A DNA stretch of 48,564 nt, counting the filler, from Catajapyx aquilonaris (Eukaryota): NCBI GenBank assembly GCA_000934665.2. It is 2 parts of 2 records of this genome, joined end to end, with 100 filler letters (N's around TTAATTAATTAA, not from the genome) between each part and the next. Parts side by side here need not be neighbours in the genome. Positions count along the whole stretch, not along the records: positions 1 to 24,231 come from JYFJ02005545.1; 1 more part is not named here. The stretch is one strand, 5' to 3'. The first letter of the stretch is position 1, and each line of letters begins with the position of its first letter. A model generated the notes under the pieces. The model ran no database searches and was not told the DNA's origin. It saw only the letters and a program-made list of their open reading frames with translations. Below are positions 5,101 through 31,674 of the stretch, piece by piece. Made by a program: the position numbers and the translations under genes.

Positions 5101-8100
5101 CTAGAATTCCAGTCTTTTCGCCTGTTAGCACACACCCCACTCCATGCTCCACTCCAGATGCTGCTGAGACCGCTTTACATTAATCCCATCTTGATCGGGG
5201 CTTAGTTTAAATATGACCTAGGTATCCATTCCATAAGACGGGTTACTTCCTTATAAAACATTATGAAACTTATAACTCAAGGGCTTGGGAGTACCCTTTT
5301 TATGAGGCTATCAATTTGCGACGGAGGCTCCAAGTTGGTCCGAGGCTGGGGATGCAGCAGTATCTCCCGAGGAAAAAAAAGGGGGTAGAAAGAAAACACA
5401 GAGCAGCTTGTTGCCATAGGGAATCCTTCCGCACCATCAGGTTTGGTGCGCCAGAGGAAGCCAAGGGAGACTTCCCGATCAAAAAGCCGGCGACGACGAC
5501 AATCATTTCCTTGCCTCGGATCAACTGCCTCGGCATTCTAATAGGAATTTCAGGATGGAAACGAAGGCGGCGTCAGGCATTCGTGCAATCCCACGGGACG
5601 GACTAACATGCCCTTCTTCACGCCTGACTCCCCCACCCACTGCACTCCTGCTGCACCACTTGGATTCAAACGAACAAAGAAGAAAGCTGGACATGCATGC
5701 GTATCGTAACCGGAAGCAGGTGAGCTCCTAGTGGCACGACAATCCTCCAGCCACCTGTCAAACGGTTCAAATAGTTCATGTCTCTCTCCCATCAATCCCA
5801 ACGCGTTACACACCCTCCCTCGCATTATGAATTCGCCGATACCCCCCCCNCCCCCCCCCCCCTTCCTTGAAGAGCACCTCCTGACTCCCAAGTAGCATAT
5901 GCCATCACGCTAATACCTGGATCAAGTTGGAAGTGCAAGCCCCACGGCTGTATATTAGTTGGCCAACCCCCCTCCCCTATCTGCAATGCCCTCCAGGCTG
6001 GCCCGGATTGTTCCTATGCACTCCCCACTCCCTCTCTCCCGCCTCCACTTCCCTCCCACCCTTCCGCTGCCGCAACCAACCCACCGGATCGATTCCTGCA
6101 GGCCTTTCCCGCCTCTCTTCCATCTCGCACCCGCACCGCACCGCACATACCTACCTGATTTCCAGTCTCAACTATTGACGCCTCCTCTTCAAGCGAACCG
6201 CAACCACTCCTATCCTAAGTGACAGGCAACCCAGAAGACTTCGGCCGAGTGAGCCTTCCCTCCTTCCCTCTTTCCCTCCCTCTGCAGGAAGGCAATGGAT
6301 CCGAGGGGGGCATTTTTGCACACATTGATTGCGTACATGGCGTAAACACGACCTAGCTGCTACAACCTCTTCCTTTCCCTTGTTAATACTTGATGCGAAC
6401 ACGAATCTCTCGTGCCAACTACATAAAAGTTACAACGATTGTTGCGCTACCGTATCGCATCACGCCTATAAAGCCGCATCGGGTATTCCCTTTGACAGTG
6501 TGCGAGCATTCATTAACTTGCAACAGTCCCAGTATAAACAAAATGAATAAACAGAGGGTTGATACCCCTTCACCTTCCGGATAATCTCCAAGAGCAGTAG
6601 GCCACGTGAATAAGTGGCAAAGGTGGGTCCACGCCGTTGTGTATAGTTGCCTCCATTACAAGAGTCGAGGACCACGCCCAGAAATTAGCATTTACGGAGC
6701 CAACCACCGAAACCTGCCGCTGGACTTTCCCACCTGATATATGTGCTCGTTTTGCCAAATAACTCCCAAACTGAATTTGGTGTCTCGTTAATCCGGAGCA
6801 TGGCTGCGTGACGCCACAACGCTCCGTGAATGCGCAGCCTCCACTATACCAAGCTGCGGTACAGGATTAATTACAGGTGCCCTGGAAAAGAGACCAGGTC
6901 TACGCCCTTCCCCAGCTCTCTCCTACCCCCCCCCCCCCACAAAAATGACAGTCTTTTTCGGAGGGTCAAGTTCGCGCTTAATCCTACCCGTGGCGCAGAT
7001 AAATTCCGCCTGCTTGCCTCTAGCCTATTACATCTGAAACCACCAAAGGAACGCAGCTATAAATCCCTCTAGACAACTCACTCTTTCCGAGAGAAGCCGC
7101 CAGTTGAAAATAACGATCCGATTCCCTAGGACAACCAGCGTAAAATGCAAAGCGATGCCGCTATGTAAAGTGACTTTCTTGGCATTTCCCTGTTAATTGG
7201 ATTAAGCTGGTCAAAGAGGCTTCATTTGCAAGATAGGGAGGGGGGGGAGGAGGAGGAAGAACGGCAGGGAAAAGCTGAAAGGAGGAGGGGAACAGCTGTA
7301 ACCCGTGAAACTCATATTGAAGATGGAATCCGACCCTGGAAATTATTTTTCTAATTAAAATGTCGCAGCCCGGATTCTTCCCAATTGAACTTTCATCCTG
7401 CATACATTTTTTTCCATGGGGACAACTTGAACTCTTATTGGGAGAAAAAAAAACCCGGCTGGTGCCAGTAGTAGCAAAAACTGAATGAAAAACCAATCAA
7501 ATTTAATGATGAAATTGCGGTTCAGATGCCTAAACGGTAAACGTCCGGTAAAATCCGTTGCTCCAGTTTCACCCATCCCCGTATTGGTTACGGCGACGGT
7601 ATATGCCGAGTCAACTACAAAGGCCACCACTGGCAATTTTGTGTGTGCGAGAGAGCGTATGTGTGTGTGTGTGTGGGTATGCATGTGTGTGTCAACGCTC
7701 GTCCTTGTTTGGAATTTCAGCCGTTAATTTCCTTGCGGAAGCTTCCGGCCAACTTCAAAGGCAGATAGGGCCTAGGGAATTGACGCTGCGAAAGAATTAC
7801 AAAAGGTACTTTTAGTTTTAATGAACCGCCTGTGGTAATGACAAAGGCAGGCGTTCGGTACGTTTCCGGTGCCCAAAAATGCTGCACCAGAGTGTCTGCT
7901 GGAAATTCTCCGACCCCCTCAGACCAAACGCAATGTTGGAAGATAATTCGCAATTTCTCACCCACGTGTTGCCATTACTTGTGATTCCTCTCATCCCCCC
8001 CCCCNCCCCCCCCCCCCTATACTCTCCACGCGAGCCAAAGATCCCCACCTTCCCCGTCATCATATTGCCATTTTCTTAAACCAATCGCCAGATGTGCTGA

Positions 8101-11100
8101 AAATGTCATCCGTAATGGAAATTTCAATGGCTCCCACCCTCACCACTTGCTGCCGTTCTATCTCTTGGATGCTAATGCCTACCCCGCACAACTTTCATCA
8201 AGTTTCCCTTAAAGGTAATATCACTGAATACTTGGTGCAACTCAAAATGCGCTCTGCGCTACACTCATCAACAGGTGCATAGCTGCCCAAAATAACACAA
8301 AAACATACTGCCATTAGATGCGTTCATGAATAATCCCTGGGATATACGCCATACAGTGTCAGTCTAGCTCTAATCCCTAAAAATGCGGCAACAGGTGAAC
8401 CTAGCAAACATCCAGGGTGAAACTCAGTTGTAGACGCATTCAGTGAATATGTTGCTTTGGACTAGCCAGCACCAATGATAGGTTTTCAATAATGCAAACA
8501 TGTTACAGGTTGAATCGGGTGATCCGCGCTTCCATGGAACAACACGAGGCAATGTCGATATACCTGGCCGACAAAACCAACATGTGACAGATTGGAATTT
8601 GACACTCAGCACAATAAAATGAAAATAATAATGAGCGCCAATTTTGCGAGATGTCTGCTGGTTGTGTGCGACGGTATTGGCACATGTTTATCAATGCCAT
8701 GCTAGAAAGCCAGGCATATGACAACATTTGCATTCTCCCGCCCTTCTTTCGAGAGCCGATTAAAATATCACTTTTGTCACATGCCTAGTTTGCCAGTCAA
8801 GTGTCCATGTATTTAAATTCCGCATTGCGTTTTTATTAAATGTTTAACTTGATAACTTCAATGAACATCACAAACATTTCATCGTATCAGTGTAAAGATA
8901 CACTCGGTCAGTCAATTTTGGCTCGATTTACGAATGTACGAGTATGCATGAGTAGCCTTATACAATGGCCCATACATAATAATACTGTATTGCCCATTCA
9001 AACCCATGAGGCAGTCCTGACCACTCTGCTGAACTTAATTCCACCCACCATCTCAATCCAAACGCGATAACTTTAGGGTCATAAAACGCTCGCCAAGGCA
9101 CGGTGCGGAGTTGTCATGTCTTGCATGTCACCGAAGGTACAGTACCTCGAGGATATTATCATGTGCAAGACATGACAATTCCGCGCCTTTGCCAGGTACT
9201 TATTGCGCCAAGTTATCGTTTTTGAACTGGGATGGTGGTTGGTATTAAGATAAGGCGGCGGATTAGGACTGCCATATCGGCTTGAACGGGCTTTGCACAC
9301 AATTTTGCCTCGTTTTACACATGTAGTATGCTCAAATAAGTGTTGAACTGCCCAGATATTGTGCGATAGCAATGCTATTGTCAAAAGGATTTCCTTTTTT
9401 GTCTGAGGTGGGTAGACGCACACAAAATACAAAAAATATGGACAAGCAAAAATTCATAAATGGTTTCTTTCAGCATATGTGAAACAGTTTACGAGCAAAA
9501 TATCTACCCTGAACCCAGAAAAAAACTACTGTAATATTCTGAGTACATGAGACCCCCGGGGGTGCCGATCGTCTACTAGCTGAGCATTTCTATGAGCATG
9601 TACTGTACACTGCCTATGAAACATGCAGTATCAAGAGATTCCCAAGAATTAATGTTTTAAACTATGAATTCTTCATTCTGAAGGCTGTAAGGTATGCGAT
9701 ATCATAACCTCACCTACCGTTACCTTTGACATCTAACTTGCAGAACATGCAGCCCCATTGCAGATCTTCAAGGGTTACTGTACACGTAACATGAAATATT
9801 GAATTCCGTCTAATTGACCAGGCCTGACCTATACGTAAACAGGCACCCATATAGTAATTAAACCTCATTGAGTTAATGTATCTGCATAGCTGCTGGCACA
9901 GACTTGGGTTTCAACAGAAAGTAGCGTACCCACACCTTAGTGGGTAGGCATTGCAGAGGCATATCTTGCGCAAAGAGGTCACTGGAGCCCTTTCTCCGCG
10001 CATCTACACTCTGTGAACCCAATGGCGCGGCACATTACGCCACAAGACCGCAATGAAAACACTCGGAATGATCCCTGCCTGCTCGTAAATAACCTCCTCC
10101 GATACTGCCCCCTTCATTAACTCCAGAATCAGACTCCCAGCAATAAAGTCCGGATGCGGTACTTTGGGGAAATCTTGCAAAGAAGCTCATCCGACGTGGT
10201 TGAGCCCTTCCTTTTCACGTAGATATGGTGCAACATCGGGGAGCACCTCCATATTCATTTTGGTGCCAAGCGGTTCCAAGTCGAGCGGGGACAGAAGACG
10301 GCGGGCACAAATAATTATTCTCATCAGCTCATCCGGGAAGTATTGCAGTCAACTCCGACTACTTTTCCTGAAAAGATACTCGCTCCCTTAACCTAATAAA
10401 ATCGGGAATGATGAGACTCCGCTTCTGCAGAAAGTGTTCCGGTAACGAAATTAACCTCGGCAGAAATTGCCCCTTTTAGTCTTTCTTCAGTCTTCACTTC
10501 ATGAATCACTATATGTATAGCCAGGGGGCTACACGAGACAAACACGTAATAAACTAGACGGTACGGAATGTGGCAACTAAAACGCACTTGCACGCAGTCA
10601 GAGGGGTCAAAGGCACTCCCAAAAACTATTCTCGGCGGATTTCCTCGCCTGCTTCTGCTGCTGCAAGGAATGGTATATATGTGAGCACACAGAGCTTCAA
10701 AGCTACAGAAAGCAATCACGAAACTCCATGGGTGGGTAAGAAACCCTTGCAATCCACGCTAATCCCAAAGCGCTCTTAGGCCAGCCTCGATATAAGAAAC
10801 GGGTCCGTGGCTGGACCCACCCTCTTGTCCCCTAAACTTCGCTAATACCTCCTAGAACCTAGTGAGCCGCCACGTTGCCCGAATAATTAAATCCCACCAA
10901 CCGGCGCTCCCCTTCGTCTCCATATTCTCTTCTACCACNCCCAAGTAATAACCTCTCTGAAAAATTCCCAGTCGCCCTTAATTTTAATTCTTGGAAGAAG
11001 GGGCGGGCATGGAAGGAATGGAGGAAGGCCCTCTTTTTTCCCCCCCTTCTGGGCGCCATCAGGAACGCGTGAATAAATAAAGGGCCCGGCTTGGAGATGT

Positions 11101-14100
11101 CGAAGGACTCGATGGGCTGTCATGAGTGTGTCCGCATCAACTCCTGGGAGGACCAAAGGACGCAAATGAGACCCCCGGTGAAGTGCCGGCTAATGTTGCG
11201 CCTTTCTCTGTTCGGTTCTGAATTTTGCATGAACGTCGCATCCGCGCTCCATTACGACTAAAAGCTTTCCCGGGTGAGACAGACTTCTGGACTGCATCAC
11301 CCCTCCGCCTGTGTCCCCAGCCTATGCACACACCAAAAAAAAAAAAAAAAAAACACACACATTTGCTTCATAAATCGCTTTCCAGCAAGCTCGATACGAA
11401 TCCCATGGTATCACAGCCGGATCAGTAGTGCTTATGAAAAACAGGGTGTCTCACAATCGCCATTTTTTGAGCACACTCTGCACATTCCATAAGGTCCAAG
11501 TGAATAGCGTCTAACTTTCAGATCGTGCCCAATGACACTCCTCCTCGCCTTTTCAGCCGTTAACAATGCCCGTGCAAAGCTCTTGATTCCTTTCCGCACC
11601 CATTCCCCGCCGGAGCCTTCGGATAACAAGGGGGCGCGGGGCAAGTTGCGATAACAAGGGGCGTAAAACATCATCATAACCATCGATCCCGGGTCCGACG
11701 AAAAGTGCCTCCAGGCAGTGCGTTTCCACTTACGATATACTTTCCAACCCTCGTTACCAAACTCCGTATTCGGAATAATATGCATGATATTGCTTTAAGC
11801 ACACAGTCAGCAGGGTCCCTGAAGGTGGAGGGAGGGGGGGGTGCCCTTCCTTCTCCCCCCCCCCCCCCCCCCCCCCCCCCCNCTCCTCAAGTTTTATTCA
11901 AAAATTAAAGGCTGGTCGTGCTAGCTACTTGTTAAAGATTCCATTGATCGGATGATTTAACGGATGCTGCTGCATGGAGAACAAAAAAGAAGAAGGGGAG
12001 GAAGAAAGTGAAGGAGAGAGGGGGGCCCCTTTTGGTCTTTTCTCGCGTCTTTCCCAATAGTAGTTTGGCAGCAGCGGCGCCTCTCTAGAGCAGCGCCAGC
12101 CAGCGCCTACTGATAAGGCGCCTTCCTTCTGATATTGATTTTAGCATCAAGTTTCATGTTCACAGAATTCCGGGACAGCATTAGAAAGATTCCCGTTTTT
12201 TGGAAACACGGGGTGTAGCCCTACTCGTTCAGAGCCAATCAATTTGTTTGGAGGACAGTCACCTTCTCTACCACCCACTACCCCCCAAATCCTCCGAGTC
12301 TCGGGGAGGTGGGATCGAGTCTGGTGGCGCCTTGTCCCCCCCAAGTTTTATGCATTCCCTGGCTCATCTCATTTGGGGATTTACAACGCCTTGCGGGGGA
12401 GGGGCCAACATGGCGCGCCGAGATAAACAGGATGATGTCTTTAATCACCATTGCAGCTTATCAACGGAGAGAAAAGGGAGAGAGGGGGAGACTTGGCATC
12501 TACGAAAACGCACCTTACCCAAGGGAGATTATGGATACATAAACGCCGTAAAATACTCGCCGACTAATTAGTCCAGTCAACAAATGCTGATATACTGCTC
12601 TTTCGTGATATCAGGTAAACACTGTAATACCAGAAATTCGATTCGTTGCAACGGAGCTGCTCGATGTATACGTATAGGACTCTCGGATTCTGCTGCCCTG
12701 GCCACCAGCAAAAACGCCAGGGTTCTGCAGCAGATAAATGAATTTGCCCAGAGCGCATCTCGGCCAAAGTGCGATAGATACGTCTAGGTACCCATCTCCT
12801 GCCCCCCTCTGCATGCATAAATAAAGCCCGGCCATTCTTCAACTTCCCCTGAAACAAACTGCATACGTGCCAAGAGCGCCATCCTTCTTTGCATTTTGCC
12901 TCGTCGCCCCTTCTCCAAAAGGAGTAATTGGGCTTCAAGTCTGCATATGTTGTGGCCTTTTTTTTTACCTGTTGAATAACCCTCCAGGGAATTGGGGGGG
13001 AAAAAAACTCAAGATGACCCTACATTAAAACCGCACTGCTTGCAGCACGTGAATTGAGTCTCCACTGTATAGCTTCCCTGGTGGAAGCGAAACGATGAAT
13101 TTATATGAACTGCAAACCAAAATTTTAATACATGGGGCTGGGTTGGTTTAGCCCAGACAGCCCAGAACGCACAACCACATGCACATGTTGCTACACTCCC
13201 GGGATTGCAATTATCCAGACACGATCGGAATCAGTTTTTCAACCCAAATTCAATTACAGCCGTAGCGAACAACCACCAGGGTTAGAATCCACCTACCCCA
13301 CCCCACCCACGTTCGGTAGCCACACACTCCCGGAAAAAAAAGAGAAGCAATGTCCACATACATATAGGACGTGCACCTGCTCGGTAGAGTCTCGTTCCCA
13401 ACGTGCTGTCGCTATGCACACTTGGCCCTGCCGGAGTTTGGGCGATACGTGGGAACGACGTCCATCAGGCACCGGCCGTGATTCTATTAGATTATGTGCC
13501 CGGAGCATCCCAACAAGGATAATCGAATGCATAGAATTGCCCCTGGCCGCTCGTTCCCTCGCAACAAATTAAAGCGCCACTCAGATTGGCAGCCTTCACG
13601 CAATCCGTGGTTTCAAAACCTTGCAATTATTGCGGGCGTCGCTCCCAGAGCCTAGATGACTCGTCTCAATGGAAGTCCGAGCGTAGTCCGGCGGTAGTCT
13701 CGGGTAGTCCGTCTACACACAAAAATACGCGTGGAGCCCGAACCACTAGTTATACTTTTCAATTATTGGCCGCTATTTTAATGGCGGTGATCGCCACGTG
13801 TCATCAATCACCCCCACCTGCTCCGGGCCTCCACAAATTTCTGGCGTGACATTTGTCAGCCCCGTCAAACCTAGTCATTACCAAAAGTGAGGGTTGGGGA
13901 GGGATGATGATTCCAACCCCATCCTATCGTCAGCCTACAAGCCCTGCCTGCTGGTGCGAGGTCCTTAGGAATCCAGTGCAATTACCCACCCAACTCCCCC
14001 ACCAGCCAGCCAACCCAAAACCCCTACCATCCATCACTGAGGCGAGTCATAAAGCCTCCGGTCAGCTGCAGCGCAGAATGTATTATGCTCCACTCCATGC

Positions 14101-15609
14101 CAAATACTCCTGGCTGCTGTCACATGTGGTAAAGCAGCCTATCTGCCAAGTGCCTGGCTGGCTTTCACATGCGTCATGTCTGGCCCAAGACTCGTCCATA
14201 TATAGGGTGATTCATGGTCCAGCCACTGCTCCATTGACAAATGGATGCTTCCGACGATGAAAAAATATTTTTGCCCGGAAAAGCTTCAATGACCCTGGCT
14301 GCCCTTTGAATTATGCAGCGAGAGAGGGCGGATGGGAGGGGAAATGATGGGGAAGTGAAAGGAGATGATGACTGTGGGCGGGTTGAAGCAGCAAGGCCGC
14401 CAGATCGATTCAACCAAAGACGCTCCTGCTGCATCCAACTAGCCAAGGCCTGCGTCACCACTTTTCCTCTCTTGCATTTCTCTCATCATCTAATGATTTC
14501 TCACTGACGCCCATTTGTCCCCGCACTGGCCTCTCCCTGCTGGCCTTCAAGCCCACACCCTCCCCAGCCCACAGGTCATCCTGCACCTTGGTAACACCAG
14601 TATGAAATCCCTTGGCTCGGATCCATGACGTCGCCTGGCAACCCATCCAGATAGATCAATCGTCTCCTGGGATTTGCCGGAATACTCCTTCCGCTCCCTT
14701 GCACTCCACTTTGCTTGTCGGAGTTACCCCTGCTCACTTCAATCAACAAAGGTTGTCCACAAGCACGCTCAACTTGGATTCCATAATTCCTCTCGTTCGA
14801 GGCTTCGTTCCCAGTCATGTTGGTTTGCATAAATTAGTATTTGACACTGGATCCATGCCTGATGATTACAGGCCTATTCATGCGGAAAGTTAATTTTCCA
14901 CTGCCATCCCGCCCAGCCTGGCTCAAACCTGCTTTCAAATATACACTCGGTACATCATTTTCTCATGTGCCTGCTGCCGCGATAAATCAAACAATATCTC
15001 AGGTTGCTGTCCTCAATTTTTAAATTGCCGCCTGGCATGGCATGGCACACACAAATTATGCAGCCAACGTTTCAAGAAGACAAGGGCACGTTACTCAAAA
15101 AGCTGTTATCGTTCTGCCTACTTGGAATTGGATGTCCTGCTTAAGTCATACTTCATTTAGAAGGTAGCAACAAAAAAATCGGGTGGGTTTTAATCCATAG
15201 AAACTGCCCAGATTTGCCTTCAGAAAAAACCACAGTAACAGCCACGTAACAGCCAAACGAAGAGCGTCAGGTTAGTTTCTATGTCATGTACGTCAAGTGT
15301 GAACATGATCCAAAAATCCCAAGATAACAACATAAGCCCCAGTCAACTGCATCTTCATCCCAGCTTCCAAACTTCAACCAAAAAGTAGACTGAGAAACCT
15401 GGTACTGGAATGCATATAACTACAAGCCTGCATCCTGGCCTGTACATTACAGAGCCATAGGTATTTACACATTCAGCCCAGGTAGTATGTTCTGCTTTCA
15501 AGTAGTCTAACCAACACCAAGGAGATCCCATGCAAAAAAATAAAAACTCAGGAGCACATGATTTACTGTAAATGCTATTTTAATCCAAGCATCGATTCAT
15601 GCATATGAT

Positions 15610-18600
15610 TCTTGCCTGTTAGCGCCAAAGATTTTATTCACAGCAGGTTCCAGCTAAAGTGATGCAGTCTTTCAATAAAGAATATCATTCCCTGCTGGTG
15701 GCAACTCAAGCACGTGGTAGAAGAAGACAGGAAGTTGAAGGACCAAAGTAAGGTGGGTGAAGTTGGATGCATGCCTGCAGAGGGTATAGAACATGTTTTT
15801 ACATTTTACTGGAAACATTTTACATTGTAAAGGAACCAAAAGACACTTACCATTAAAATTGTGTGAACTTCATGAGTCTCGAAGGTGCATCTTTCTGCAA
15901 ATATAAATATCAGACATTAATTAAAAATAAAACACCCTTGTGAGACACTGCACTCATTAAAGACACCTGAAACTGCTGATACATGCTGTGGATGTTAGTC
16001 TGCCAACCCAGGTCAATATACTCAAAATAAGCAGATTAGTGTGTGTGCATAGCTGTGAATCTCAATTAACAAATCAATGAATTTTGAATTTTGAAATTTT
16101 TTTTATCCTATCAAAAGTCGATGAACCATACTCACATAGTATGTTTGCCTTTACTTAGCCAGTGCTTACAATAACCAACGATGGGAATCCTACACCAAGG
16201 ATAATTATAGTTCCACTTGGTAAGTGGACTGACATGGAACTATTTTTAAAATACAGGCTGTTACACTTAAGCATCACCTGCAACTCACACTAATAATGGA
16301 GGCTACGCAAGCGTAAGTGACATGTTCAATTATTTAATACCTGCTGTAGCATTGCATGTGGCTGCTTTCATGTTAAATTACATTGTACAACAGACTACCA
16401 CAATAAATAAATAACACAATTATATGCATATGGAATAAGTAGCCCTACAGAGGTCATGCAGGACTGTAGTCGTCCTCTTCAGCACAATGACATATTCCAA
16501 CACTACTTCATAACGTTTCCTGATATTTGTGACTTAGCTGCACATCAGGGCATGATAGATTCATGAATCCCTAACCCATATTTGCTGCATGTAACTGCTC
16601 AGGCAGGAAAAACCAGACAAGGAAGTGGGAAATAATATCTACAACTGAATTTCAACCATTGTAAACAGCCACTTTATATACTGCATTCGAACATTATTCA
16701 AAATGACACTGTTACACAGTCTGCAAACATTTTATACCATTTCTCCCCACCTTCTTGTCAAGGCTACCCTACATACACTACCAACTATGATGAGAGATGC
16801 AATGAGTCTCAAATTGGGCTTCATGAAGGCTACTTCTCAATTGATCATTCCAACCATATGTGAAATAGCCTCAACATACTGTCACTCAACCCAAGAGTTA
16901 GCACACAGCAATAACAAAAATTAACTTACCAAAGTTTAGCCTAATGCTGGAATTCTTGCATTACCACTATGTGTAAATAATTCTTTGAAAGGGTATCCAT
17001 AACTTTGGCATGTGCTCTGTGCTTACTACGTAAAATATGTAATCACTTCCACGAAACCATGAACTACAACAGCACAATATTGGTAATCCGAGGTTCCACG
17101 CAAGCAGTTAAGTCGGCTCACACTCATTTCGTTCCATACCAATGTGAGCAGAACCAGGCGTGAGTAGTATATGGGGAAATCTGACAGATGTCACTGGGGA
17201 GCTGGTTGAGGATTAGCAATGGAGAAGAGTCCTAGGGTCAGGGGGAAGTTGAGGAGAGTTGAAGGGAGGGGATGCAGAGTATTGGAGGGTAGAAGAGTTG
17301 GCAACTTGCCAACACCTGGTATTACCCACTCCTGCTCCCATTTACAGGGAACTAGATGACTCCAGTTCAGTCACATGCCTGCCTATATCCCTGGTGTGGA
17401 CTGGTTAAGAATTACCATTCATATGACACCTCTGAATGGTGTTACCCATGTAGGTGTGTCTTACGATAGTGCAGTGTAACTATCTACAACAGACCCTGGA
17501 CACTGCAGAAACTTGTCATACGATACCAGAATTTGTGATCCTGGCAGGTGATTTTTGTCATGTATAACAGTTCAGTGAGGAATATTTTTGCAGACATAGT
17601 GATTCCACTATTTTTCATGCCTGAAAACTGGATCTCCTACTCCAGGGTTATTATAACACATCAGCAAATGTACTAAAATCATTCCATTGCATTTTTAAAT
17701 ACACTTACAGTACACTGATCTAGTCCCACCTGAAAATTTGGTTTTGCACTATTTTCTAACACCAATCGAGGCTGCCAATTTATATTTATATTAACTATTT
17801 TATTCCTTGACATTCTCCTCAACATACACATATACTGAGTCTCCACCTGGACAGAACAGTGGGGTACACAGGCTCTGACAACCCTGAGAACTATGTCAAT
17901 TGCAGCTTAGCTATGGGTAGGACTTCCCTAGGCAGACAGGTCTTTGTGGAGTGCGAGTCAGATGAAGATACTTCCTCCCCATCCTCCAGTCTCCCTCTCC
18001 CTTCTTCCTCATAGATTCTTAGATGCATTGGCTACTTCTACAAAAAATAACTTAGCAATCCAATGTTACTGTGTATGCAGCTTTTGCCAGTTTCGTCCTG
18101 CACATGCCATCTACCTCGCTTCTGGCTTCATAAGCGAATTTCCTCTCTTAATTTCAAACCAATCTTAATTTTTACATGCTGCATGGTCTTAACCTGCTTT
18201 GGCTACTCCAATAAACATCTAATTTTTACAGTAAGATACTGTTGGTAAAAGGAATGCTAAGTTATTAATTCATTAAAGGGTGCCATTTTAATACTTTTCA
18301 CATCAGTGCAGCTTGGACAGTGAACCTGGATCACCTAGTGGAGACAGCTAGAACACTCGGATGCTACATTTATTGGCCATCATGCTAGCCTGTATAAATT
18401 CTGGCAGGCTTTCTGCCTGAATATCTGGAACTCTATTCTGCGATTGTCGAGCAGCTTATGCTAGCAAGCAGCGACGTAGAAGCGAACGACTTGGAATGAC
18501 TGCAGATGCATCTGGTTGGCTAGACAGCGAAGGTAGGCATGGCCAGGCCTACCTTCCTCCTGTCTGGTCAACCAATTGCAGCCATAAGAATTCTGGGCCG

Positions 18601-19570
18601 CTCACTCCTTTGTCAGTTTGATGTTGTACTCGCCAGCATGTGCCCCTCGACAACCCCAGAAAACAGGTTCTGGTCACCACCTGAAACAGTTACATAGTTA
18701 CATTACGAGTATATCTAGTTTTATCAGTTGCTACATGGTCATCTCAAATCGGGCCATACCGCAGTACTAGCTGTAGGTTCGGGAAAACCTAGTTTATCAA
18801 GTCAGCATTACATGCAACCTGGTGCTTAGCATATGTGGGCCTATGAACTCATATTTCCCATCAGCAGCCGCACATGCCGTAGCAGGACAGTCAAGGAGCA
18901 CCACATGGCGACGATTGCTACTCAGTTCGAGGCTGCAACAGATATATATTACAGTAGTGTCTGGCCCTCTCTGCCTGCAAAACACCAACAGCCCAAGCTC
19001 TGAAGTAGCAAAAAAAGGTACAGCAAGCAGGGTCGAAAGAAGTGACAGCAGTACAAACTGGTCATCATTTGAAGCAATTCAGTTGAGCACTCCTTAACTG
19101 CGCCTCATCCACTACCTCCGACCCTGCCCCTAGGCCAGCCAGCCCTGCCCTGCCTGCCCCTGTTGCGATCATCAGACAGCCTCTTGAAAGAAGTCACCCA
19201 CCTATATTCCCGCTGTCAAGCACCCACTCACAGGCTGCCCGCGGTGGTGGCGGCGGCGGCGACCCCACGGCGCACTCCGGATGGTCGGGAAGGGAGACCG
19301 GACGATGTCCTTCCGATCAACGAGTATGAACCCAAATCATGATAGCTCCTGCGATGAGTCTGGACAGCGAGATAGCGGGTTAGGAGGCAGGCGGGCAGAC
19401 ACCGTTTTTCATCCCGGAAAATAATATCCGACGGGCCGTCCACCGCTCGCAAGTCGGCGGCGACGTAGCCGTCATCTTGCGGGCACAAACAAAACTCCTC
19501 TCTTCAAGAGACCCAGGAATACCAACCAGGTGTAGTCACATAAGCGGCCATGTTTGATGCAGGCGTACTG
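15610..19570 (-). ncRNA. Candidate spliced, polyadenylated long non-coding RNA (exons approx. 19570-19232, 18680-18553, 17729-17709, 16966-16930, 15894-15851, 15774-15610)
   Basis: Minus-strand donors GTGAGT (19231), AAG|GTAGGC (18552), GTAAGT (17708, 16929, 15850), GTGAGT (16135). Acceptors TTTCAG (18681, 17730), TTGCAG (15895), CTGCAG (15775). AATAAA at 15638-15633. CpG-rich first exon; only very short ORFs. Start and end are approximate. Confidence 0.55.
18914..19078 (-). ncRNA. Candidate intronic box C/D RNA (orphan)
   Basis: Box C ATGATGA (19068-19062), box D CTGA (18925-18922), terminal stem ATTGCTTC/GTAGCAAT (7/8 pairs) with canonical 2-nt spacing. No target recognised. Confidence 0.3.
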
Positions 19571-19720
19571 CTCCCACCAGTTTCAAACTGGGAATTATGA
19601 AGTGTATGTGGCCACACCGGTAATCATGCTGTAATCCCACAAAATGTGTTACCATTTTTACAGTTATGGCTGGTTGGCATTGTGTATGCTAGCCATCTTC
19701 GAAGACGTCTCGCCGCCACC
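19230..19720 (-). promoter_or_regulatory. CpG-rich promoter-like region with YY1/Pho-like motifs
   Basis: High CpG density. Minus-strand AACATGGCCGC (~19544-19554), AAGATGGC (~19692-19699) and AAGATGACGGC (~19468-19478) resemble the YY1 consensus found near housekeeping TSSs. Confidence 0.45.
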
Positions 19721-19945
19721 AGCAGGTGAAGCTTTGCAGGTTCAGTGAAAGATAAGGTCTCTCCCAATTTTTATTATTATTTATTTTATTTTATTATTAT
19801 GCGGCAGATGAAATCAATACTGGATCAGCCAACTGGAACGTCACATTGTACAGGTGCATTTGGCAACAAGGAGACGGCAGGGGGAAAATTTACAGCATAA
19901 TATTGACGGGTGAGGTATAATGTTGCATTTTTGTGGATAGTTTTA

Positions 19946-20270
19946 CGAGGGGAATCAAAAAGTATGGACTACTCTTTTATTTCACTACTAAAACTGATAG
20001 ATACATATGATAGGGCAAGTCTTCCTCTATCAGTCACTATACATGGTGCTGTCCCAGCGGGACACTAGTTTTTCCATGTCACTTCAGAACAAAGCGTCGA
20101 GCTGGCCTCTTTGTCGCTGAAGTGCTGACCTACCTGACCGACCAGGTGCTTCTTCAGTGGTACGAAATGATGGTCTTTACCTTGGTCTACCGTCTACCCT
20201 ATCTTTGGACCAAGAAAGAAACACTGGCTTGCTAAGACTTCAGCGACATAGAGGAAGTGAAAGAGGTTAA
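19946..20270. mobile_element. Decayed mariner remnant
   Basis: TA-CGAGGGGAATCAAAAAGT terminus; mariner C-terminal FGP.KKH...F...EEVK remnants on both strands. Confidence 0.65.
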
Positions 20271-20291
20271 TAATATATTACAGTTAATATA

Positions 20292-20467
20292 CAGTTAAAT
20301 TCGGATATAACAGCCTCGGATGATACAGACTTTAGGTGATAACGGACTCGAAAGGCCGGACCCGGCAAACTTCCATATATGGATTTTTTATTCGGCTATA
20401 ACAGACCCTGGTTATAACCAACTGATTTCCTCGGTCGCTTGAAGTCTGTTATATCCGGATTCAGCTG
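20292..20467. mobile_element. Pogo/Tigger-like MITE
   Basis: TA-flanked CAGTTAAATTCGGATATAAC ... GTTATATCCGGATTCAGCTG with internal G(A/C/T)TATAAC repeats. Confidence 0.8.
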
Positions 20468-20856
20468 TAGTTATAATACTCTTTGATGTTGACATTCTGT
20501 GAAACTTTTACTTCTGTGGTTTTTGGCGATGCATGGATAATCCGCAACACGGATAATCAGGAGTTTGTGCAGTAAAATAGGGCACCTGCTGGATCAGGGC
20601 ACAACAAGAAACACAAAAACAACAGGGCAAAATCTCACAATGCACCCCACATACTTGGAACACCCTCTACGTGTACGTACAGGACATAATTGATCTATCC
20701 AAATTGGAAAAATCACCTTCACTTAGTGAATGAGGTTGTATAAAATCATAGCGATGTGTGAAAAGAGGGAAGCTTGTGAACACTTCAATAATTACTCAAG
20801 CTGAACTTGGGATGTGCCCAAGCACTCCGATACGGTATTATTAGGTGGGTAATAAA

Positions 20857-21245
20857 TACAGAGTCATCGAACAAAAATGTTCGGATTTTAAAAACCTATA
20901 ACTCGAAAAATTCTAAGAAGTGTTTACAGTTTTGGTCTCACGACTCTCACCATAGTTTGTTTCGTTATGAGCTCCATGTAAATACGGCGATCGGTGTCGT
21001 GCCTGACCCGGTCAGGCATGTCTGGAGTCACCATTGTGATCTTATCCCGTAGGTGTTGGTCTGCCGGATATTTTCACTACACTTGTATCTCCACACAAAA
21101 AAGTCCATCTGGATATAAGATCTGGGCTCCTGGTGGGACTAGGCATTGGGAAACTTCTCATTAAAGACTTCGCACACTGGGTGAACAAATGAAACTTTTC
21201 TATGGCAGGTTTGTTTCATGGATGAGGCGACTTTTTATGTGTAGG
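20857..21245 (-). mobile_element. Decayed Tc1/mariner fragment
   Basis: Frameshifted P.RSPDL..DFF.W motif on minus at ~21085-21137; TA-CAG terminus. Confidence 0.55.
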
Positions 21246-22274
21246 CCCTATCATCAAGAACCAGGGGTCCTTCCACGTGAAATCATCACGAGGTGTGCTC
21301 GTGAATTTTAGATTTCCAACATAATTTTGCAGGGAGATAATAAACCTATCCCTATATACACTCTAGATTTCCCAAGTATTTTGCTTCGCTGTCCTCAAGG
21401 TCATGAGAGGTGAGGGGATATGTCCTGGGAGGGGGGGGGGGGGGGCAAATTGCAACTTTCAAACCGAGCCACTTTCAGAATCGACGAATACCAATCAAAA
21501 AAACTACGCGTCGCGTAGTAGCGACTCTTTTCGTGTAACACTCGTTTCAGACCAAATATAGAAAGTAGAATTTGAAAATGTATTATTGTAATCACTTATG
21601 CGATATACCGTTGTGTAATGAGTTACAGCCTCCGCAATGTGTGTATTTTTGTCAAAATTTGCTCTCTTTCGGAATTCTTTACTGCCATACTATTGTATTA
21701 ATTTGCAAATATTATATACCTTGTCGGAGATATGTCGATGTACCTGATCTCTCGTAAATTATTTAGCGTTGTACAATATACTTATAAACTCGGAGAAATT
21801 AACATCACATTTTGAAGAAACCTCATTTTGGCAGTTATTGACGCCCAAAAAAAGGTATGTGGGACAACGACTAAAAATCAGGAAGTGAGTTATTCGGAAA
21901 GTCCAAAACGTGGGCCAACGATAGACACAATTCGTGTCTTTTGCTCCTCATCTTCGTCCACACTACGACTGGGTGTACGGCAACTACGTGAACGGCCTGA
22001 CGCCTGAGGAATGAGGATAGCCAACGGAGACAGTCACCGGGTGCTCAGTTCCACTGCGGAGACCACGTACAATTAGGCCGAAGGTGGGGGCGTGGTCATA
22101 CCCACTGGTTACTCCAGTCTGGTCCAGAGGATGGCTAATGAGCCAACTGCATCTTCTTCGACGCACCTGTCAACTCGGTACAATGGAACGGAGATGGGAT
22201 CGAGGTCAAGTACGGGTCAAGTGTCATAAGGACAAAGGCAGCCATCGTCACGGTCGATTAGGCATACTGTACAT

Positions 22275-22445
22275 TCCAATCAATCGAACGATCGATCAAT
22301 AACCCCAGTAATTAGTGATCAATCAATACATCGATCAACTTTCAGATAATTATCTGAAATAATCAATCACTGGCTTGTGCAGTTAATTACTTGCTCGATT
22401 GATTGATCAACTAATCAATCAATCCAATTCAATACAATCAATTCA
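22275..22445. repeat. Degenerate ATCA/ATCG simple repeat
   Basis: Repeated CAATCAATCGA / GATCAA units. Confidence 0.7.
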
Positions 22446-22562
22446 TTTTACCCAGTCATGTTTTACATTCCCATCTCCCCACCGCAAGTATGTACAGGAT
22501 GGTATGGCACAAAAAGGCCTGAGAAATGTTCAAATGAAGGTACAAAAACATGTCATGTAGAT

Positions 22563-23447
22563 GGGTCATTCCATGCTAATCCTGTAAATGATGGTGGCTC
22601 GACCCCTTCCGATATATAACTGAAAAAATCATGTAGGTAGGTATCCACACCTTCTTACGAAATCCTAAATTTGAGGCCGCTGGAGTCAAATCTCACGGAG
22701 ATATAACAATGGAAAGTTCAACAATGACGTCCATGTCAAGTATTTTTAACTGTTCAGACTGTTCTCCCAACACCAGCATGTTACATATCAAATGGAAGGT
22801 AATCCCGAGAAGAATAACATGGTTACAAAATATTTGACCTAACTCGAAAAACGAAGTCGAAAAACAATTCGCACATATATGCTGTACAAATCACTCTACA
22901 TTCCTGATAGCCGTAACTCATAACATTATGATTTTAACAAAGTGATATGTAGGATACAAGGTAATCAGCTTTGCCTAAACGGACATGCAAAACCTCATTG
23001 TGATAGGTCAAGCAGGGTTGGAAATAAAAAATCCCGAAAATATGAATTACCGCATTTTGCCGATTTTCGAGCTCCAGGTAGGACTGGACCGATTTGGACT
23101 TTTGGTATGTCAATCGATTCCTTGGATCATCCCCTATTCAGAAATGCATAAACCATTCTTTACCCGTGAGCAATAATTCATTCGCGAATTTTCAAACGTA
23201 TGGGTGCATAAGGCGGTGCACGGAATCATACACCCATGCGTTTGAAAATTCTCTGAAAAATACTTGACATGGACGTCATTGTTGAACTTTCCATTGTTAT
23301 ATCTCCGTGAGATTTGACTCCAGCGGCCTCAAATTTAGGATTTCGCAATAAGGTGTGGATACCTACCTACATGATTTTTTCAGTTACATCGGAAGGGGTC
23401 GAGCCACAACTTTTCAGAAAATTTATAGAATTGAGATGGAATGACCC
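22563..23447. mobile_element. MITE with long TIRs, GGG termini and 4-bp TSD (Sola2-like)
   Basis: GGGTCATTCCAT...ATGGAATGACCC; near-perfect inverted arms ~22595-22746 / ~23259-23407; TSD AGAT. Confidence 0.88.
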
Positions 23448-24231
23448 AGATAATAATATTTACTATCAGTAACGCAAGTCAACTAAACATAACAATGTCC
23501 AAAATATAATTAACTGCTAAATGGTAATCATCACAGTCCATGAAATGCTCCTATGAGTTATCCCTAATACGTAAGACGGGCGTATCATATGCTGATACGC
23601 TGGCTTTAAAAAATTCTGCTGGCGAAACTACAGTCTTCTCACTATGTAACGTAGTTTCTGTGTGGCTTTTTTAAATTTTCTCTCGCGTAAAAAATCGCGA
23701 ATTTTGGACTACAAAATCTTGCATAAATCAACCAGATTAACCAGATTAACTTGAATGACATCATCTTTTTGCGGCCCATGAAAAAAGCTCCCTAAAAATT
23801 ATCATGTAGGCCGGCAAATTTTGGCATACAGAGTTGCCCCCAAACCTCCTCGAGAGTTCCACCCTAAAATTAGTGCAAAAGATAATTCAATAGTTTTAAA
23901 ATAAATAAACAATGTTCGTAAATGACAATTATAGCGGCTAGCGGGCCACTGCGCAACTCTCGCCCGGCCTCCGCCAGGATGGAGGGGCGCATGCCCCACG
24001 GGGTTTTTGAACAGCTGTGGCGCAAGGGAGGTTCACACTCGGGTGGGGGTTGTATGTTTGTCTCTCATGTTGGTATGCCTGTCCTGTGACGTATTATTCA
24101 TGCATACTGGTATGTTCAGTAGCGCCAGCACGACACATCTAATATATATAAAGCCCCAATCCGAGGAGGATATAGGATGGAAAAGATCTCCCACTTCCCG
24201 AGGTCGTACAGACCTCGGACTTACGCCGTTG

Positions 24232-24331
24232 NNNNNNNNNNNNNNNNNNNNNNNNNNNNNNNNNNNNNNNNNNNNTTAATTAATTAANNNNNNNNNNNNN
24301 NNNNNNNNNNNNNNNNNNNNNNNNNNNNNNN
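24232..24331. other. Assembly gap with artificial TTAATTAATTAA spacer
   Basis: N runs flanking an all-frame stop linker; 100 bp total. Confidence 0.97.
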
Positions 24332-24458: not shown

Positions 24459-25402
24459 TTCATACCCCGTTATCAGCCTTTTTCGGCTCTTTAGGGGGGA
24501 AGTTTTTCTTTTGCCTGGAACTCTTTGCTTTAATTTTACTTTACTTTTTGGCATGGGATAGGGACGGACGGAAGCGGCTGTGGCCTGTTAATGGGGAACT
24601 AGCCTTGGTCTGGGATTTGGGATTTTTGTTCATAACTAGCTAGCCCATGCCTGTAAACATACATTCCATCACTCTGTTGCATCAAAATGACATTACTGGA
24701 TAAATTACGGCACATTTAAAAGTGCCTTCAAAATTGGCGGGAAAAACGCTGGAGCCAATCGAAAGGGTACACTGAAATGCCTGGTTGACTGCGAGATATG
24801 AGGAATTTGACTTTGAATTAACCGCGGACACGACGGAAAGCATTCGCAAGGCGGCTGTAGGCCATCGAGGTGGAGAAAGGGGGCCTTCATGTGCCGAATT
24901 CGGGTGACAGATGATTCCTGCCAGTTGGCACCCCTGCCAGCCCCTAAGCTGATTGAGCGGCGTGAAGTAAAAACGCGCCCCGGCCGCTATCTTGCTCATG
25001 GAATGGGACGGTTGTTAACCACAGCGAAGCATTTTACAACAATGACGGGGCGCGTTCTATAACATCATTTTTGCGTTCATTTCACTTCGCGTGACGTCAA
25101 CATTTTCTAGGGAAACAGTGACGTCACCATTTCCCTACATAAAAACCCCAATTACTCCGGAACTAAAGCTGATATCTTAAAACGGAATATGCCAAAAAAA
25201 TCCCAAAAATATGGGCGAATTTATTATGTAGTTTCCAAAATGAAGGCTACTTCCCCATTACAGAAGCAATTCCGGAATTTTCCGGGAAGGACCGTGGGAA
25301 ACCACAGAAAACCACGGTCAGAGTTGCCGGCCCCGGGATTTGATCCCAGGACCTCCCGATTAGCAGTCGGACACCGTATCCCCTACTCCAAACTGCTTCG
25401 GT
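24423..25402 (-). mobile_element. SINE family A pieces: tail/body ~24423-24610 and head ~25262-25402, separated by unrelated sequence
   Basis: Both pieces align by eye to the 1826-2175 copy; (AAT)n tract at the tail end. Confidence 0.7.
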
Positions 25403-25959
25403 TATTTCGAGTTTTAAGGATGTCTTTTTGGAAATTAATATAGGGACTTCTAGAGTAAAATTATTCGCAACACATTCATAGTGTTTTTCATGAATGGGTA
25501 AATATAGCTGTTATTATTTGTAAAATATCTTGTCTTAATCTTCAGAGTAGGCGTAAGCGAAAATCTCGGCATTTTCTCCCTGTCTGGTAGCAAAGGGGTT
25601 AATTAATCCACTTTAGCATTGAATACTACCCATTATTCCTGGGTCTATTTCATTTCCTTCCTTACCCATTTATTCCAAGTTGTTTCATTTGTATTAATTC
25701 CATTCACTCCCATTTTGGCCTATTAATATCAATAATATGTCAGTTTATCAGTGAATACTATTCCCATACTATTCTTTTAAATGTCCAAGATTGAATTTAT
25801 TTGTGAATTAATTCCATTATGAACTGAATGGTGCCGATCACCACTTGAAAGAGTGAAGGGGGCCTAACTCTTCTTACGCTTTGCAGGGGTATGATGCAGT
25901 TTTGAGGGTACTCAGGCGAGAAGTTGTAATTTTTAGCCTATCCTGTTGCATTACACAGA

Positions 25960-26625: not shown

Positions 26626-26692
26626 ATGGCCACCTTCCGATCATCATAAGAAAATGTATACTCACCCTAAATTATTTTATCTGCACTTTCAG

Positions 26693-27137
26693 GATAGGTC
26701 ACCATAGCACATCAGATGACAGCAGTGCATACAGATCAGTAGATGAGGTCCGTTTCTGGGATTCAACAGACCACCCTATCGCAAGGCTGAGGGCATACAT
26801 GATTGGGAAAGGTTGGTGGGATGAAGGCAGGGAGGAGGCGTGGAGAGGGGAGGCAAAGCAAAAGGTCATTACTGCCTTTGCCAAGGCAGAGAAGCACCTG
26901 AAGCATGATTGGAGACTCATGTTCACCGATGTCTATGACCAGGTGCCAGACAGCCTCAGGTTTGTAGGAAATTTGTGGCGTATCCTTTGAATAGATTTTT
27001 TAAAACTACTATAGTACTGTGGAAATATTTGATTACCTCTCAGGAACCAGATGCAGTATATGGAAGATCACGTGAACAAGTACCCAGAGCATTACCCTCT
27101 GAAGAACTTCACACAATCAAGCGGACCACTTGAGTAA
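26693..27137 (+). CDS. BCKDHA: Branched-chain 2-oxo acid dehydrogenase E1 alpha, last two coding exons (26693-26959, 27044-27137)
   Basis: Encodes (R)[20 protein letters not shown]...DHPI.RLR.Y...GWW.E..E..W...FTDVY...P and terminal [14 protein letters not shown], the BCKDH E1-alpha phosphorylation loop and C-terminus. AG/GT sites keep frame; TAA at 27135-27137. Confidence 0.96.
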
Positions 27138-27552
27138 TTTTCATGAATCTTATTGGAAGGAAATGAAGGCTTGGGACTCGGAAACAAAACTGATCAACCC
27201 TTGGGTCCTTGGTGATTTCTGGATGCCTTCCACAGACTTTGCCTTTTGTTTGAACCACTTTTACCTGATCTTGCCGGAGAAACAGAATTGATGTTGTATA
27301 GCTTAATACATGTGGTTTGATTCAAGGGCAATTGCAAGGGGGCTTGATCACAAGAGGCAAAATGTGTTAAGGCAGCCGTGGGAAGGAGGGTCAATGTACC
27401 TAATGGCTGAAGTCTGAAACCACACCCCTCTCTTCTTGATAAATGGTATTGCCCTCTTGTGGATATGATTTTAATAGGTTAGGGACCCATCTTTGCATTT
27501 AAGATAGTCTTCCCACTAATAAACACTATTTTTGAGAATGATTTTACTGATT

Positions 27553-28938: not shown

Positions 28939-29706
28939 CCTTCCTTCTCGCCGGCTGACTGTTGGAGAAGCTGAAGCCCCAAACGAGAAACGGGGGAAAG
29001 AAGAAGGCGAACTGACAATTTCGAAGAGCCTCACTCTGTTCCGCTCTCGTCCGCTCTGTTCGAAGTCAAGGTTGCCAATAGGTATCCTAGCGATACTGTT
29101 TGTGGGTGCGTTCATATATTTTTGCGCATTTGGCAAAACGTCAAAACGCGACAAGTTTTAAAAATAAGAGTTGAAATATAATGTAATGGGACATGTAATC
29201 TTGACATGTTTTTCAGAATTCTGCTGTAAAAAGATGAACACAACATGTCTGACAACCTTGTTTAACTCAGTGACGTGTGATGTGCAAGGTTATGAACGAA
29301 TCCAGAGGAGACGGTGGTATCGGCGTAGATTGCGGCTTTCGGCGGCTTTTTGGGGTGTGATATCTGCATGACTGCATGGGAAAAGTCAGCGACTCATCAT
29401 CAGAGATCGGATTTCTAGGTTCTAAAAAAAAACCTCAGATAGGTAGGCATTTAGGTCCTGAAAACAGTTAAAATAGGCGCTAAAAATCAAGCTGGTCCTC
29501 ATTTATTTTAAGTCCCATGCAAAACCTTACAGCCTATGCTTGGCCATGTACCGTCAATCGGGGTTACTTAAGCCGGGTGGGTAACTTAAGCCATTTTTCT
29601 GCGTAAATTTCGGACACTGATTTGGGCAACACTGTTTTGAGTTGAAATGTTATTTTTCATGACATAAGTCCATATTGTAGTGCAGTTTTGGACTGCATAT
29701 TTAAAT

Positions 29707-31643: not shown

Positions 31644-31674
31644 TATAAAGTCTTTATATTTATATTATACTTTA

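Follow-up and report, generated by a model that had tools for sequence, protein, structure and literature searches.

A CpG-depleted interval near ATP5S and BCKDHA in Catajapyx aquilonaris as a candidate lineage-specific non-coding transcription unit

Drosophila Uhg genes are non-coding snoRNA hosts. Among the features of snoRNA hosts, PMC6954239, which cites Smith & Steitz 1998, names a 5'-TOP/TCT polypyrimidine initiator. The methylated gene set of arthropods is described, in the abstract of Lewis et al. 2020 (PMC7343188), as similar and conserved across arthropods and as made up mostly of conserved, expressed genes. The other systems relevant to the present locus are lncRNAs that start in a promoter island, either intergenic or antisense in a host intron, and the hosts of primary microRNAs. 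The locus lies in a window of 48,564 nucleotides, by which we mean the whole stretch of DNA analysed: two parts of assembly GCA_000934665.2, joined by 100 filler letters and not necessarily neighbours in the genome, with positions 1 to 24,231 taken from JYFJ02005545.1.

Like promoter-island lncRNAs, the candidate combines a CpG-rich start, few short exons and a canonical poly(A) signal, and it is without coding capacity or detectable conservation; compared with them it shows nothing distinctive, and its transcription is putative. Like the methylated 'housekeeping' genes of arthropods, of which ATP5S and BCKDHA serve as examples here, it has a CpG-poor, TpG/CpA-rich body and an undepleted start, but unlike the conserved, expressed set described in that abstract it has no recognisable protein or homologue. 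A lineage-specific non-coding unit would be unexpected in such a conserved set, and this counts against an lncRNA. Our tentative reading, which we hold to be plausible rather than probable, is that the interval at 15.0-19.5 kb is an ordinary lineage-specific lncRNA candidate, that is, a small independent Pol II unit on the minus strand. Should it prove real, it would add one lineage-specific lncRNA to a neighbourhood of housekeeping mitochondrial genes, in an arthropod genome whose annotation is poor; this would be of value for annotation and no surprise. We infer transcription itself, its strand and each splice junction from features of the sequence.

The initial annotation had described a spliced minus-strand gene with micro-exons, and the individual motifs on which it relied were recovered (Table 1). 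The CpG-rich exon 1 ends in a GTGAGT donor (...GCAGCCT/GTGAGT at 19232, minus strand), acceptor and donor motifs flank the proposed exons of 128, 21, 37 and 44 nt, and an AATAAA signal is present. The last intron is also present and of typical size, as the verified introns of BCKDHA and ATP5S measure 84 and 67 nt.

Table 1. Features of the candidate unit, with positions counted along the window and splice-site scores in bits; a slash marks an exon border
Feature	Position	Strand	Details
CpG-rich block, putative promoter-proximal part and first exon	19233..19520	-	31 CpG, GC 0.61, o/e 1.17
Proposed exon 2, 128 nt	18680-18553	-	TTTCAG/exon/GTAGGC
Proposed micro-exon, 21 nt	17729-17709	-	TTTTCAG/exon/GTAAGT
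Proposed exon, 37 nt	16966-16930	-	CATAG/exon/GTAAGT; acceptor 3.3 bits, donor TTG/GTAAGT 8.7 bits
Proposed exon, 44 nt	15894-15851	-	TTGCAG/exon/GTAAGT; acceptor 6.5 bits
Proposed last intron, 76 nt	15850-15775	-	GTAAGT...CTCTGCAG/15774; acceptor 8.9 bits
Proposed last exon	15774-15612	-	44-codon ORF 15772-15641, stop 15640-15638; AATAAA 15638-15633
CpG-depleted, TpG/CpA-enriched domain	15001..19232	.	o/e 0.32
Long imperfect hairpin across the exon-2 donor	18485..18602	.	predicted fold

In this mosaic-methylated genome, transcription units (ATP5S, the 3' end of BCKDHA, a WD40 gene) are picked out far better by CpG/TpG wear than by splice-motif chains. Over the body of the candidate, the CpG depletion is accompanied by TpG and CpA values of 1.36 each; in the flanks, the CpG o/e was 0.79 (1-13500) and 0.85 (19601-24200), with TpG and CpA at about 1.0-1.2. 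The CpG-rich block spans 288 bp and begins at the base adjoining the proposed exon-1 donor, its left edge coinciding with the GTGAGT at 19231 and the putative exon 1 ending at 19232. The signature of arthropod methylated gene bodies, namely a body poor in CpG and rich in TpG/CpA behind a start region that is not depleted, is thereby present as far as composition can reveal it, and we infer from that composition that the CpG-poor domain is a historically germline-methylated gene body. ATP5S, 9 kb from the candidate and mapped with six homologues as three exons (28938-27795), has a body with a CpG o/e of 0.41 and TpG/CpA of 1.45/1.44 and an upstream o/e of 1.02, and the 3' exons of BCKDHA have an o/e of 0.28. 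The CpG-depleted body, the CpG-rich putative 5' end and the likeness to ATP5S lend indirect support to a Pol II unit on the minus strand. Strand-composition skews were left out of the strand assignment because they are inconsistent among the known genes of the window.

Under the lncRNA reading, transcription would start in an unmethylated CpG-rich region at about 19.23-19.5 kb, and the transcribed body would have been methylated in the germline and would have lost its CpG through that methylation. The 3' end would fall close to the AATAAA (15638) or a further 50-450 nt beyond it, where more A[AT]TAAA signals occur at 15584 and 15194. The product would be a spliced, polyadenylated, non-coding RNA of about 0.5-0.7 kb with no role as a snoRNA host.

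The same composition bears on the main rival view, that no gene exists here, which we consider rather unlikely. On that view, the splice-like motifs, the AATAAA and the short ORFs arose by chance in intergenic DNA or in a very long BCKDHA intron, and methylation of the CpG-poor domain had a different cause, for example an ancient unrecognised repeat or spreading inside a host gene. Of BCKDHA, which lies downstream on the plus strand, the window contains no more than the final 117 residues (26685-27122), so that 1-26.6 kb may indeed be intronic; with the upstream exons of BCKDHA outside the window, the candidate unit may be either nested in that gene or intergenic. However, the rest of this putative intron (1-13.5 and 19.6-24.2 kb) is not CpG-depleted, and spreading from the host gene therefore fails to explain a 4-kb island of depletion. 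At 32001-34500 lies a second CpG-poor stretch (o/e 0.47), to which no exon was mapped and which holds transposon-like, inverted-repeat sequence; CpG depletion is not restricted to verified exons here, a point against the lncRNA reading and for the absence of a gene. Against the absence of a gene stand the sharp boundary of the domain, which meets the GC/CpG-rich block exactly at the first donor, its resemblance to the verified ATP5S, and the failure to find repeat features in the candidate region. A transposon origin was rejected, since the candidate has no second copy in the window and searches for repeats, whether direct, tandem or terminal inverted, found none.

Splice sites were scored with a generic matrix. 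Ranked among all GT on this scale, the proposed donors occupy the 96th-99.7th percentile; ranked among all AG, the proposed acceptors occupy the 80th-99th. In strength, the proposed sites equal verified ones (6.4-10.1 bits for donors vs 3.9-6.8 bits for verified donors). Exon 2 has an acceptor of 5.9 bits (94th percentile) and a donor, AAG/GTAGGC, of 8.6 bits (99th percentile), and the donor of the 44-nt exon, ATG/GTAAGT, reaches 10.1 bits (99.7th percentile). The 21-nt micro-exon is the least secure part, with a weak acceptor of 2.8 bits (80th percentile) and a donor GTAAGT of 6.4 bits; the CAG/GTGGGA at its acceptor is also an 8.8-bit donor for an alternative exon of 117 nt (17846-17730). 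Of the junction elements, the donor of exon 1 (19232) and the last intron of 76 nt deserve most credence, and the micro-exons of 21 and 37 nt least.

The claim of a micro-exon architecture thus stood as regards the presence of its motifs, but not as regards their density, which is at chance level on both strands. On the minus strand of 15400-19800, GTRAGT occurs 6 times vs 3.0 ± 1.7 in dinucleotide shuffles, a count reached by 83 of 1000 shuffles; among the 4.4-kb stretches of both strands of the window this density is the highest, which speaks for the lncRNA reading. Within the region, the minus strand carries 9 donors and 6 acceptors that score 7 bits or more, where the rest of the window would predict 6.7 and 7.8, and the plus strand carries 8 donors and 10 acceptors; splice-like sites of similar quality are equally common on both strands elsewhere in the window. 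Across the window, 253 donors score 6 bits or more, and 92 of them (36%) are preceded by an acceptor-like site at a distance of 15-50 nt, so that 'micro-exons' can be drawn almost anywhere. The chain of splice sites is not statistically separable from background. This background-level density, together with the 41 minus-strand copies of AATAAA in the window, favours the absence of a gene. So does the search for core-promoter motifs, which found no TATA, Inr, DRE or TCT on either strand of 19150-19900, and so does the lack of conservation in any comparison made: no look-alike stretch was found in the other windows or genomes compared, and a metagenome collection yielded no exact match to a 55-nt stretch of the last exon. 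The splice chain at background and the missing core-promoter motifs also count against the lncRNA reading, as does the ill-defined 3' end, which follows from the gradual leftward tapering of the CpG-poor zone (o/e 0.3-0.7 over 13750-15000). Micro-exon 'architectures' drawn from raw sequence are not to be trusted without reads.

The initial annotation had regarded the unit as non-coding, with only short peptides, and this description agrees with the coding tests. The four internal exons allow 16 combinations, and in every one of them the longest ATG-initiated ORF is 44 aa. We consider improbable the alternative of a protein-coding gene, in which the unit would be a uORF-rich 5' leader to coding exons outside it or would encode a small lineage-specific protein (the 44-aa ORF or a 31-aa ORF in exon 1). 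In its favour, the TGA stop of the 44-codon ORF overlaps the AATAAA, and methylated arthropod genes are mostly conserved and expressed according to the abstract of PMC7343188. Nevertheless, no homologue candidate for the 44-aa ORF was found among proteins of 24-77 aa, and Pfam was negative for all ORFs of at least 28 aa in 14.9-19.8 kb, with no match better than E 0.017 for the 108 ORFs of 28-77 aa and none for those of at least 78 aa. No open frame of exon 1 with an ATG reads into exon 2, and the well-spliced open exon candidates on either strand gave translations that, judged by eye, are unlike proteins. The 91-aa open frame of exon 1, compared with 1.84 billion proteins, had one match, to a 2200-aa tandem-repeat protein (E 2.7e-19 over 15 stretches); this was dismissed as an artefact of summing over repeats, since pairwise BLASTP gave E 11. 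For the suggestion of a 5' leader belonging to some gene on the left, no candidate was found: ORFs of at least 78 aa in 1-15 kb had no Pfam match, and the leftward 1-13.5 kb is not CpG-depleted (o/e 0.79). For ORFs of at least 28 aa and recognisable peptides, all tests run (ORF, homologue and Pfam) agree and fit a unit that would have no protein-coding capacity.

With its several short exons, a poly(A) signal, no ORF longer than 44 aa, and short upstream ORFs of the kind that would attract nonsense-mediated decay, the candidate resembles GAS5/UHG, and the initial annotation had drawn this analogy. Unlike those hosts, however, it yielded no intronic snoRNA, and the analogy is not supported. Rfam 15 at gathering scores gave no match in the whole window, and at E up to 10 it gave four weak matches in 15000-20000, none of them to a snoRNA family. 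A scan for box C...D pairs with a terminal stem found nine pairs in the whole window; the one that falls in the region, 208 nt long with a stem of 4 bp, is not convincing as a snoRNA. The Rfam and box C/D scans are blind to novel H/ACA RNA. The TCT/TOP consensus YYCTTTYY was not found on either strand of 19150-19900, the start site being putative. Judged from the introns, in which no snoRNA was found, the feature that gives snoRNA hosts their function is absent from the candidate. A further box C/D candidate, noticed by eye in intron 1 (ATGATGA at 19068...CTGA near 18925, with ATTGCT/AGCAAT ends), was rejected: its stem is offset from the boxes by 4 and 2 nt, it would give an RNA of about 165 nt, and the stretch 18900-19090 folds no more stably than its shuffles (z +1.79).

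The exon-2 donor is spanned by a long hairpin, with an MFE of -58.7 kcal/mol over 131 nt on the minus strand (z -4.94; none of 200 shuffles as stable) and a core in which a stem of ~25 bp closes a loop of 8 nt. When the 100-nt segments of the window are ranked by stability, the top 25 include no other strong hairpin from the CpG-poor domain. In the predicted fold, the exon-2 donor sits in the 5' arm, buried inside a 10-bp perfect stem, which is a further point against the lncRNA reading. A stable hairpin of ~70-130 nt within a putative non-coding unit is reminiscent of pri-miRNA hosts, and we regard it as quite improbable that the hairpin is the functional element and the unit a primary microRNA-like transcript on either strand. 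The stability, the stem and loop and the sole Rfam match, a weak one to mir-763 (E 0.0076), speak for this possibility. Yet that match reaches 28.3 bits vs a gathering score of 100, so that the hairpin is not a member of the mir-763 family, and the known-family match looked for in a miRNA precursor was not found. Unlike pri-miRNA hosts, moreover, the hairpin spans an exon/intron border and its 71-nt core folds better on the strand antisense to the proposed gene (-43.7 kcal/mol on the plus strand vs -34.3 on the minus). Stronger hairpins are frequent in the window, probably as transposon palindromes, and a 24-nt hairpin arm had no exact match in the metagenome collection. A 9-nt resemblance between the 21-nt exon and the seed region of miR-279 was dropped, as Rfam gave no such match.

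A more elaborate version of the minus-strand lncRNA, possibly nested antisense in a >26-kb BCKDHA intron, would carry a 'splice-or-dice' switch at the exon-2 donor; we give this almost no credence. In it, the exon-2 5' splice site would be locked in the 10-bp perfect stem of the 130-nt hairpin, the 3' arm would mimic the 5' end of U1 snRNA, and the cell would choose between splicing the RNA and excising the hairpin as a small RNA.

The greater stability of the hairpin on the plus strand, together with the plus-strand orientation of the downstream BCKDHA, also raises the possibility that the unit is real but belongs to BCKDHA pre-mRNA or to another plus-strand gene, which would make the minus-strand model wrong. 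An open exon candidate at 15644-15747 (acceptor 6.1 bits, donor 7.7 bits) points the same way, but Pfam for 15623-15748 was at chance level only (E 0.04-0.09). The idea that the candidate region holds upstream BCKDHA exons was rejected: tblastn with six homologues found no conserved BCKDHA exon in 1-26.6 kb and nothing better than E 0.67 outside 26685-27134, and a search of the candidate region for short BCKDHA motifs gave no match. We consider a plus-strand unit very unlikely, as the CpG-rich block would then fall at its 3' end, and strong donors number three on the plus strand vs six on the minus.

The window was a mosaic of CpG-undepleted DNA (observed/expected ratio, o/e, about 0.8-1.0) alternating with CpG-poor domains, and came from an arthropod-like genome. 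Deamination of methylated cytosines leaves low CpG and a reciprocal excess of TpG/CpA. The candidate, a proposed spliced non-coding gene on the minus strand at about 15.0-19.5 kb, is compared with its flanks and with the other genes of the window in the table. The depleted domain ended abruptly at a CpG-rich block (31 CpG, GC 0.61), the first base of which came directly after the proposed exon 1 donor, in line with the CpG-rich first exon of the initial annotation; the left edge was gradual (o/e 0.3-0.7 over 13750-15000). In its base composition, the CpG-poor domain looks like a gene body with its start at the right end, which would place it on the minus strand. Lewis et al. 2020 (PMC7343188) describe intergenic DNA and transposons as generally depleted of methylation. 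We tentatively read the candidate as an ordinary lineage-specific lncRNA transcribed from the minus strand, its start CpG-rich and its body methylated in the past; its transcription, strand, splicing and conservation are all predictions. A caveat is that the same paper describes methylated genes as a conserved set. No look-alike sequences were found in the other scanned windows or the metagenome collection. The candidate stretch was unique within the window and free of repeats, whether tandem, direct or terminal inverted. As further caveats, no TATA, Inr, DRE or TCT core-promoter motif was found in 19150-19900, and 32001-34500 was likewise CpG-poor (0.47), with transposon-like inverted repeats and no mapped exon; CpG depletion here is therefore not confined to verified exons. 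That stretch is probably a transposon, since it carried mirrored ORFs and, at about 33181-33280, a long hairpin that was nearly perfect.

Proposed gene model of the candidate (minus strand; a slash marks the exon boundary) and dinucleotide o/e ratios across the window
Feature	Position	Sequence read	CpG o/e	TpG/CpA
Exon 1 donor	exon end 19232	GCAGCCT/GTGAGT		
128-nt exon (exon 2)	18680-18553	TTTCAG/exon/GTAGGC		
21-nt exon	17729-17709	TTTTCAG/exon/GTAAGT		
37-nt exon	16966-16930	CATAG/exon/GTAAGT		
44-nt exon	15894-15851	TTGCAG/exon/GTAAGT		
Acceptor after last intron (76 nt)	15774	CTCTGCAG/exon		
AATAAA	15638-15633	AATAAA		
Candidate body	15001-19232		0.32	1.36/1.36
CpG-rich block	19233-19520		1.17	0.74/0.94
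Left flank	1-13500		0.79	1.12/1.03
Right flank	19601-24200		0.85	1.13/1.16
ATP5S coding span	27795-28940		0.41	1.45/1.44
ATP5S upstream	28941-29500		1.02	1.15/0.97
BCKDHA 3' exons	26693-27400		0.28	1.25/1.47
WD40 gene	41400-46900		0.50	1.19/1.22

Every motif claimed for the model was present on the minus strand at its stated position, and the chain of splice motifs was no more than expected by chance. On the minus strand, 15400-19800 held six copies of the strong donor GTRAGT, making it the densest such 4.4-kb stretch in the window on either strand; dinucleotide-preserving shuffles gave 3.0 ± 1.7, and 83 of 1000 reached six. With a generic splice-site matrix, the proposed sites scored 6.4-10.1 bits (donors) and 2.8-8.9 bits (acceptors), and the verified BCKDHA and ATP5S sites, mapped by homologues, scored 3.9-6.8 and 7.3-12.2 bits. 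At a threshold of at least 7 bits, the region had 9 donors and 6 acceptors in minus-strand orientation (6.7 and 7.8 expected) and 8 and 10 in plus-strand orientation, a frequency not above that of the rest of the window. A plus-strand unit is highly improbable, the right-end CpG boundary pointing to the minus strand. Across the window, 253 donors reached 6 bits or more, and 92 of them had an acceptor-like site 15-50 nt upstream, so that a micro-exon could be drawn at nearly any place. The acceptor of the 21-nt exon was the weakest of the set (80th percentile), and its sequence, CAG/GTGGGA, scored higher as a donor; the window's minus strand had 41 copies of AATAAA. These counts are what chance motifs in non-genic DNA would give, an explanation that we consider only somewhat less likely than the lncRNA reading.

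Read as minus-strand RNA, 18485-18602 folded into a long imperfect hairpin (MFE -58.7 kcal/mol, z -4.94, none of 200 shuffles as stable). The proposed exon 2 donor lay inside its perfect 10-bp upper stem, which weakens confidence in that donor. The hairpin may represent a precursor of small RNAs or else a short inserted palindrome. Its match to a miRNA model was weak (28 bits; gathering score 100), its 71-nt core folded better on the plus strand (-43.7 kcal/mol) than on the minus strand (-34.3 kcal/mol) because of two G-U pairs, and several stronger, transposon-palindrome-like hairpins occurred elsewhere in the window; that the whole candidate is a hairpin-centred small-RNA precursor appears quite improbable. 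Almost perfect hairpins of very high stability at 9101-9200, 11781-11880 and 31661-31760 (-50 to -55 kcal/mol per 100 nt) are probably inverted-repeat transposons or palindromes.

The initial annotation had likened the candidate to GAS5/Uhg-type snoRNA-host genes, which PMC6954239 defines by intronic snoRNAs and 5'-TOP/TCT initiation. The exon pattern may be alike, but the candidate is not a member: no Rfam family reached its gathering score in the whole window, and at E up to 10 the only four matches in the 15000-20000 interval were weak and involved no snoRNA family, in tests that are blind to a novel H/ACA RNA. A scan for box C and box D with a terminal stem returned one unconvincing pair in the region, and 19150-19900 held no TCT-like initiator. 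A box C/D pair seen by eye in intron 1 was ruled out by geometry and fold.

No sign of coding capacity emerged, and the claimed lack of a long ORF held: whichever of the four internal exons were joined (16 combinations), the longest ATG-initiated ORF was always one 44-codon frame of the last exon. That the candidate belongs to a coding or micropeptide gene is improbable. The 44-aa ORF had no homologue candidates among proteins of 24-77 aa. On the two strands of 14.9-19.8 kb, the 108 stop-to-stop ORFs with lengths of 28-77 aa gave a best Pfam E of 0.017, all matches being far under their cutoffs, and the region's ORFs of at least 78 aa gave no match; across 1-25 kb, ORFs of that length gave only one chance-level match (4895-5179, E 0.004, under its cutoff). 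By our judgement of their translations, candidate exons that were open and flanked by good sites, whichever the strand, were unlike proteins. Against 1.84 billion representative proteins, a 91-aa open frame of exon 1 that lacks an ATG had a single match, a 2200-aa tandem-repeat protein, rejected as a homologue (BLASTP E 11; an artefact of 15 summed weak repeats).

Only the last about 117 residues of BCKDHA were in the window, in two plus-strand exons (26693-26959 and 27044-27134) split by an 84-nt intron with a weak donor, GTTTGT; the best-matching proteins were 2-oxoisovalerate dehydrogenase alpha subunits of crustaceans and other arthropods, which were 59-70% identical over 89 aa. No further BCKDHA exon was detectable in 1-26.6 kb. 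The upstream exons therefore lie beyond the window, so either the assembly is broken or the intron before these two exons is longer than 26 kb, and the candidate may be intergenic or may sit inside a very long intron of BCKDHA. Runs of N occurred at 24232-24275 and 24288-24331, within AT-rich simple sequence. ATP5S/DMAC2L, mapped with six homologues, was complete on the minus strand (27795-28938) in three exons (ATG at about 28938 to a donor at 28844; about 28365-28144; 28078-27795), with introns of about 480 and 67 nt, and its best protein matches included molluscs (65-70%) alongside arthropods. It is convergent with BCKDHA, the stop codons being about 650 bp apart, so that the two 3' UTRs may overlap.

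A plus-strand WD40-repeat gene spanned about 41-47 kb. ARAGORN called a tRNA-Ser(GCT)-like element at 44658-44729 (minus strand), inside a repeated unit found on the plus strand at 1701-2174, 25111-25440 and 44411-44770, the translation of which recurs three times (...NHRKPRSG.P.PG.EPRTSRLAVG...); the unit is probably a tRNA-derived SINE family. A 175-aa open frame on the minus strand at 47809-48333, for which Pfam returned nothing at E 0.01 or better, looks similar to the C-terminal region of reverse transcriptases from non-LTR retrotransposons.
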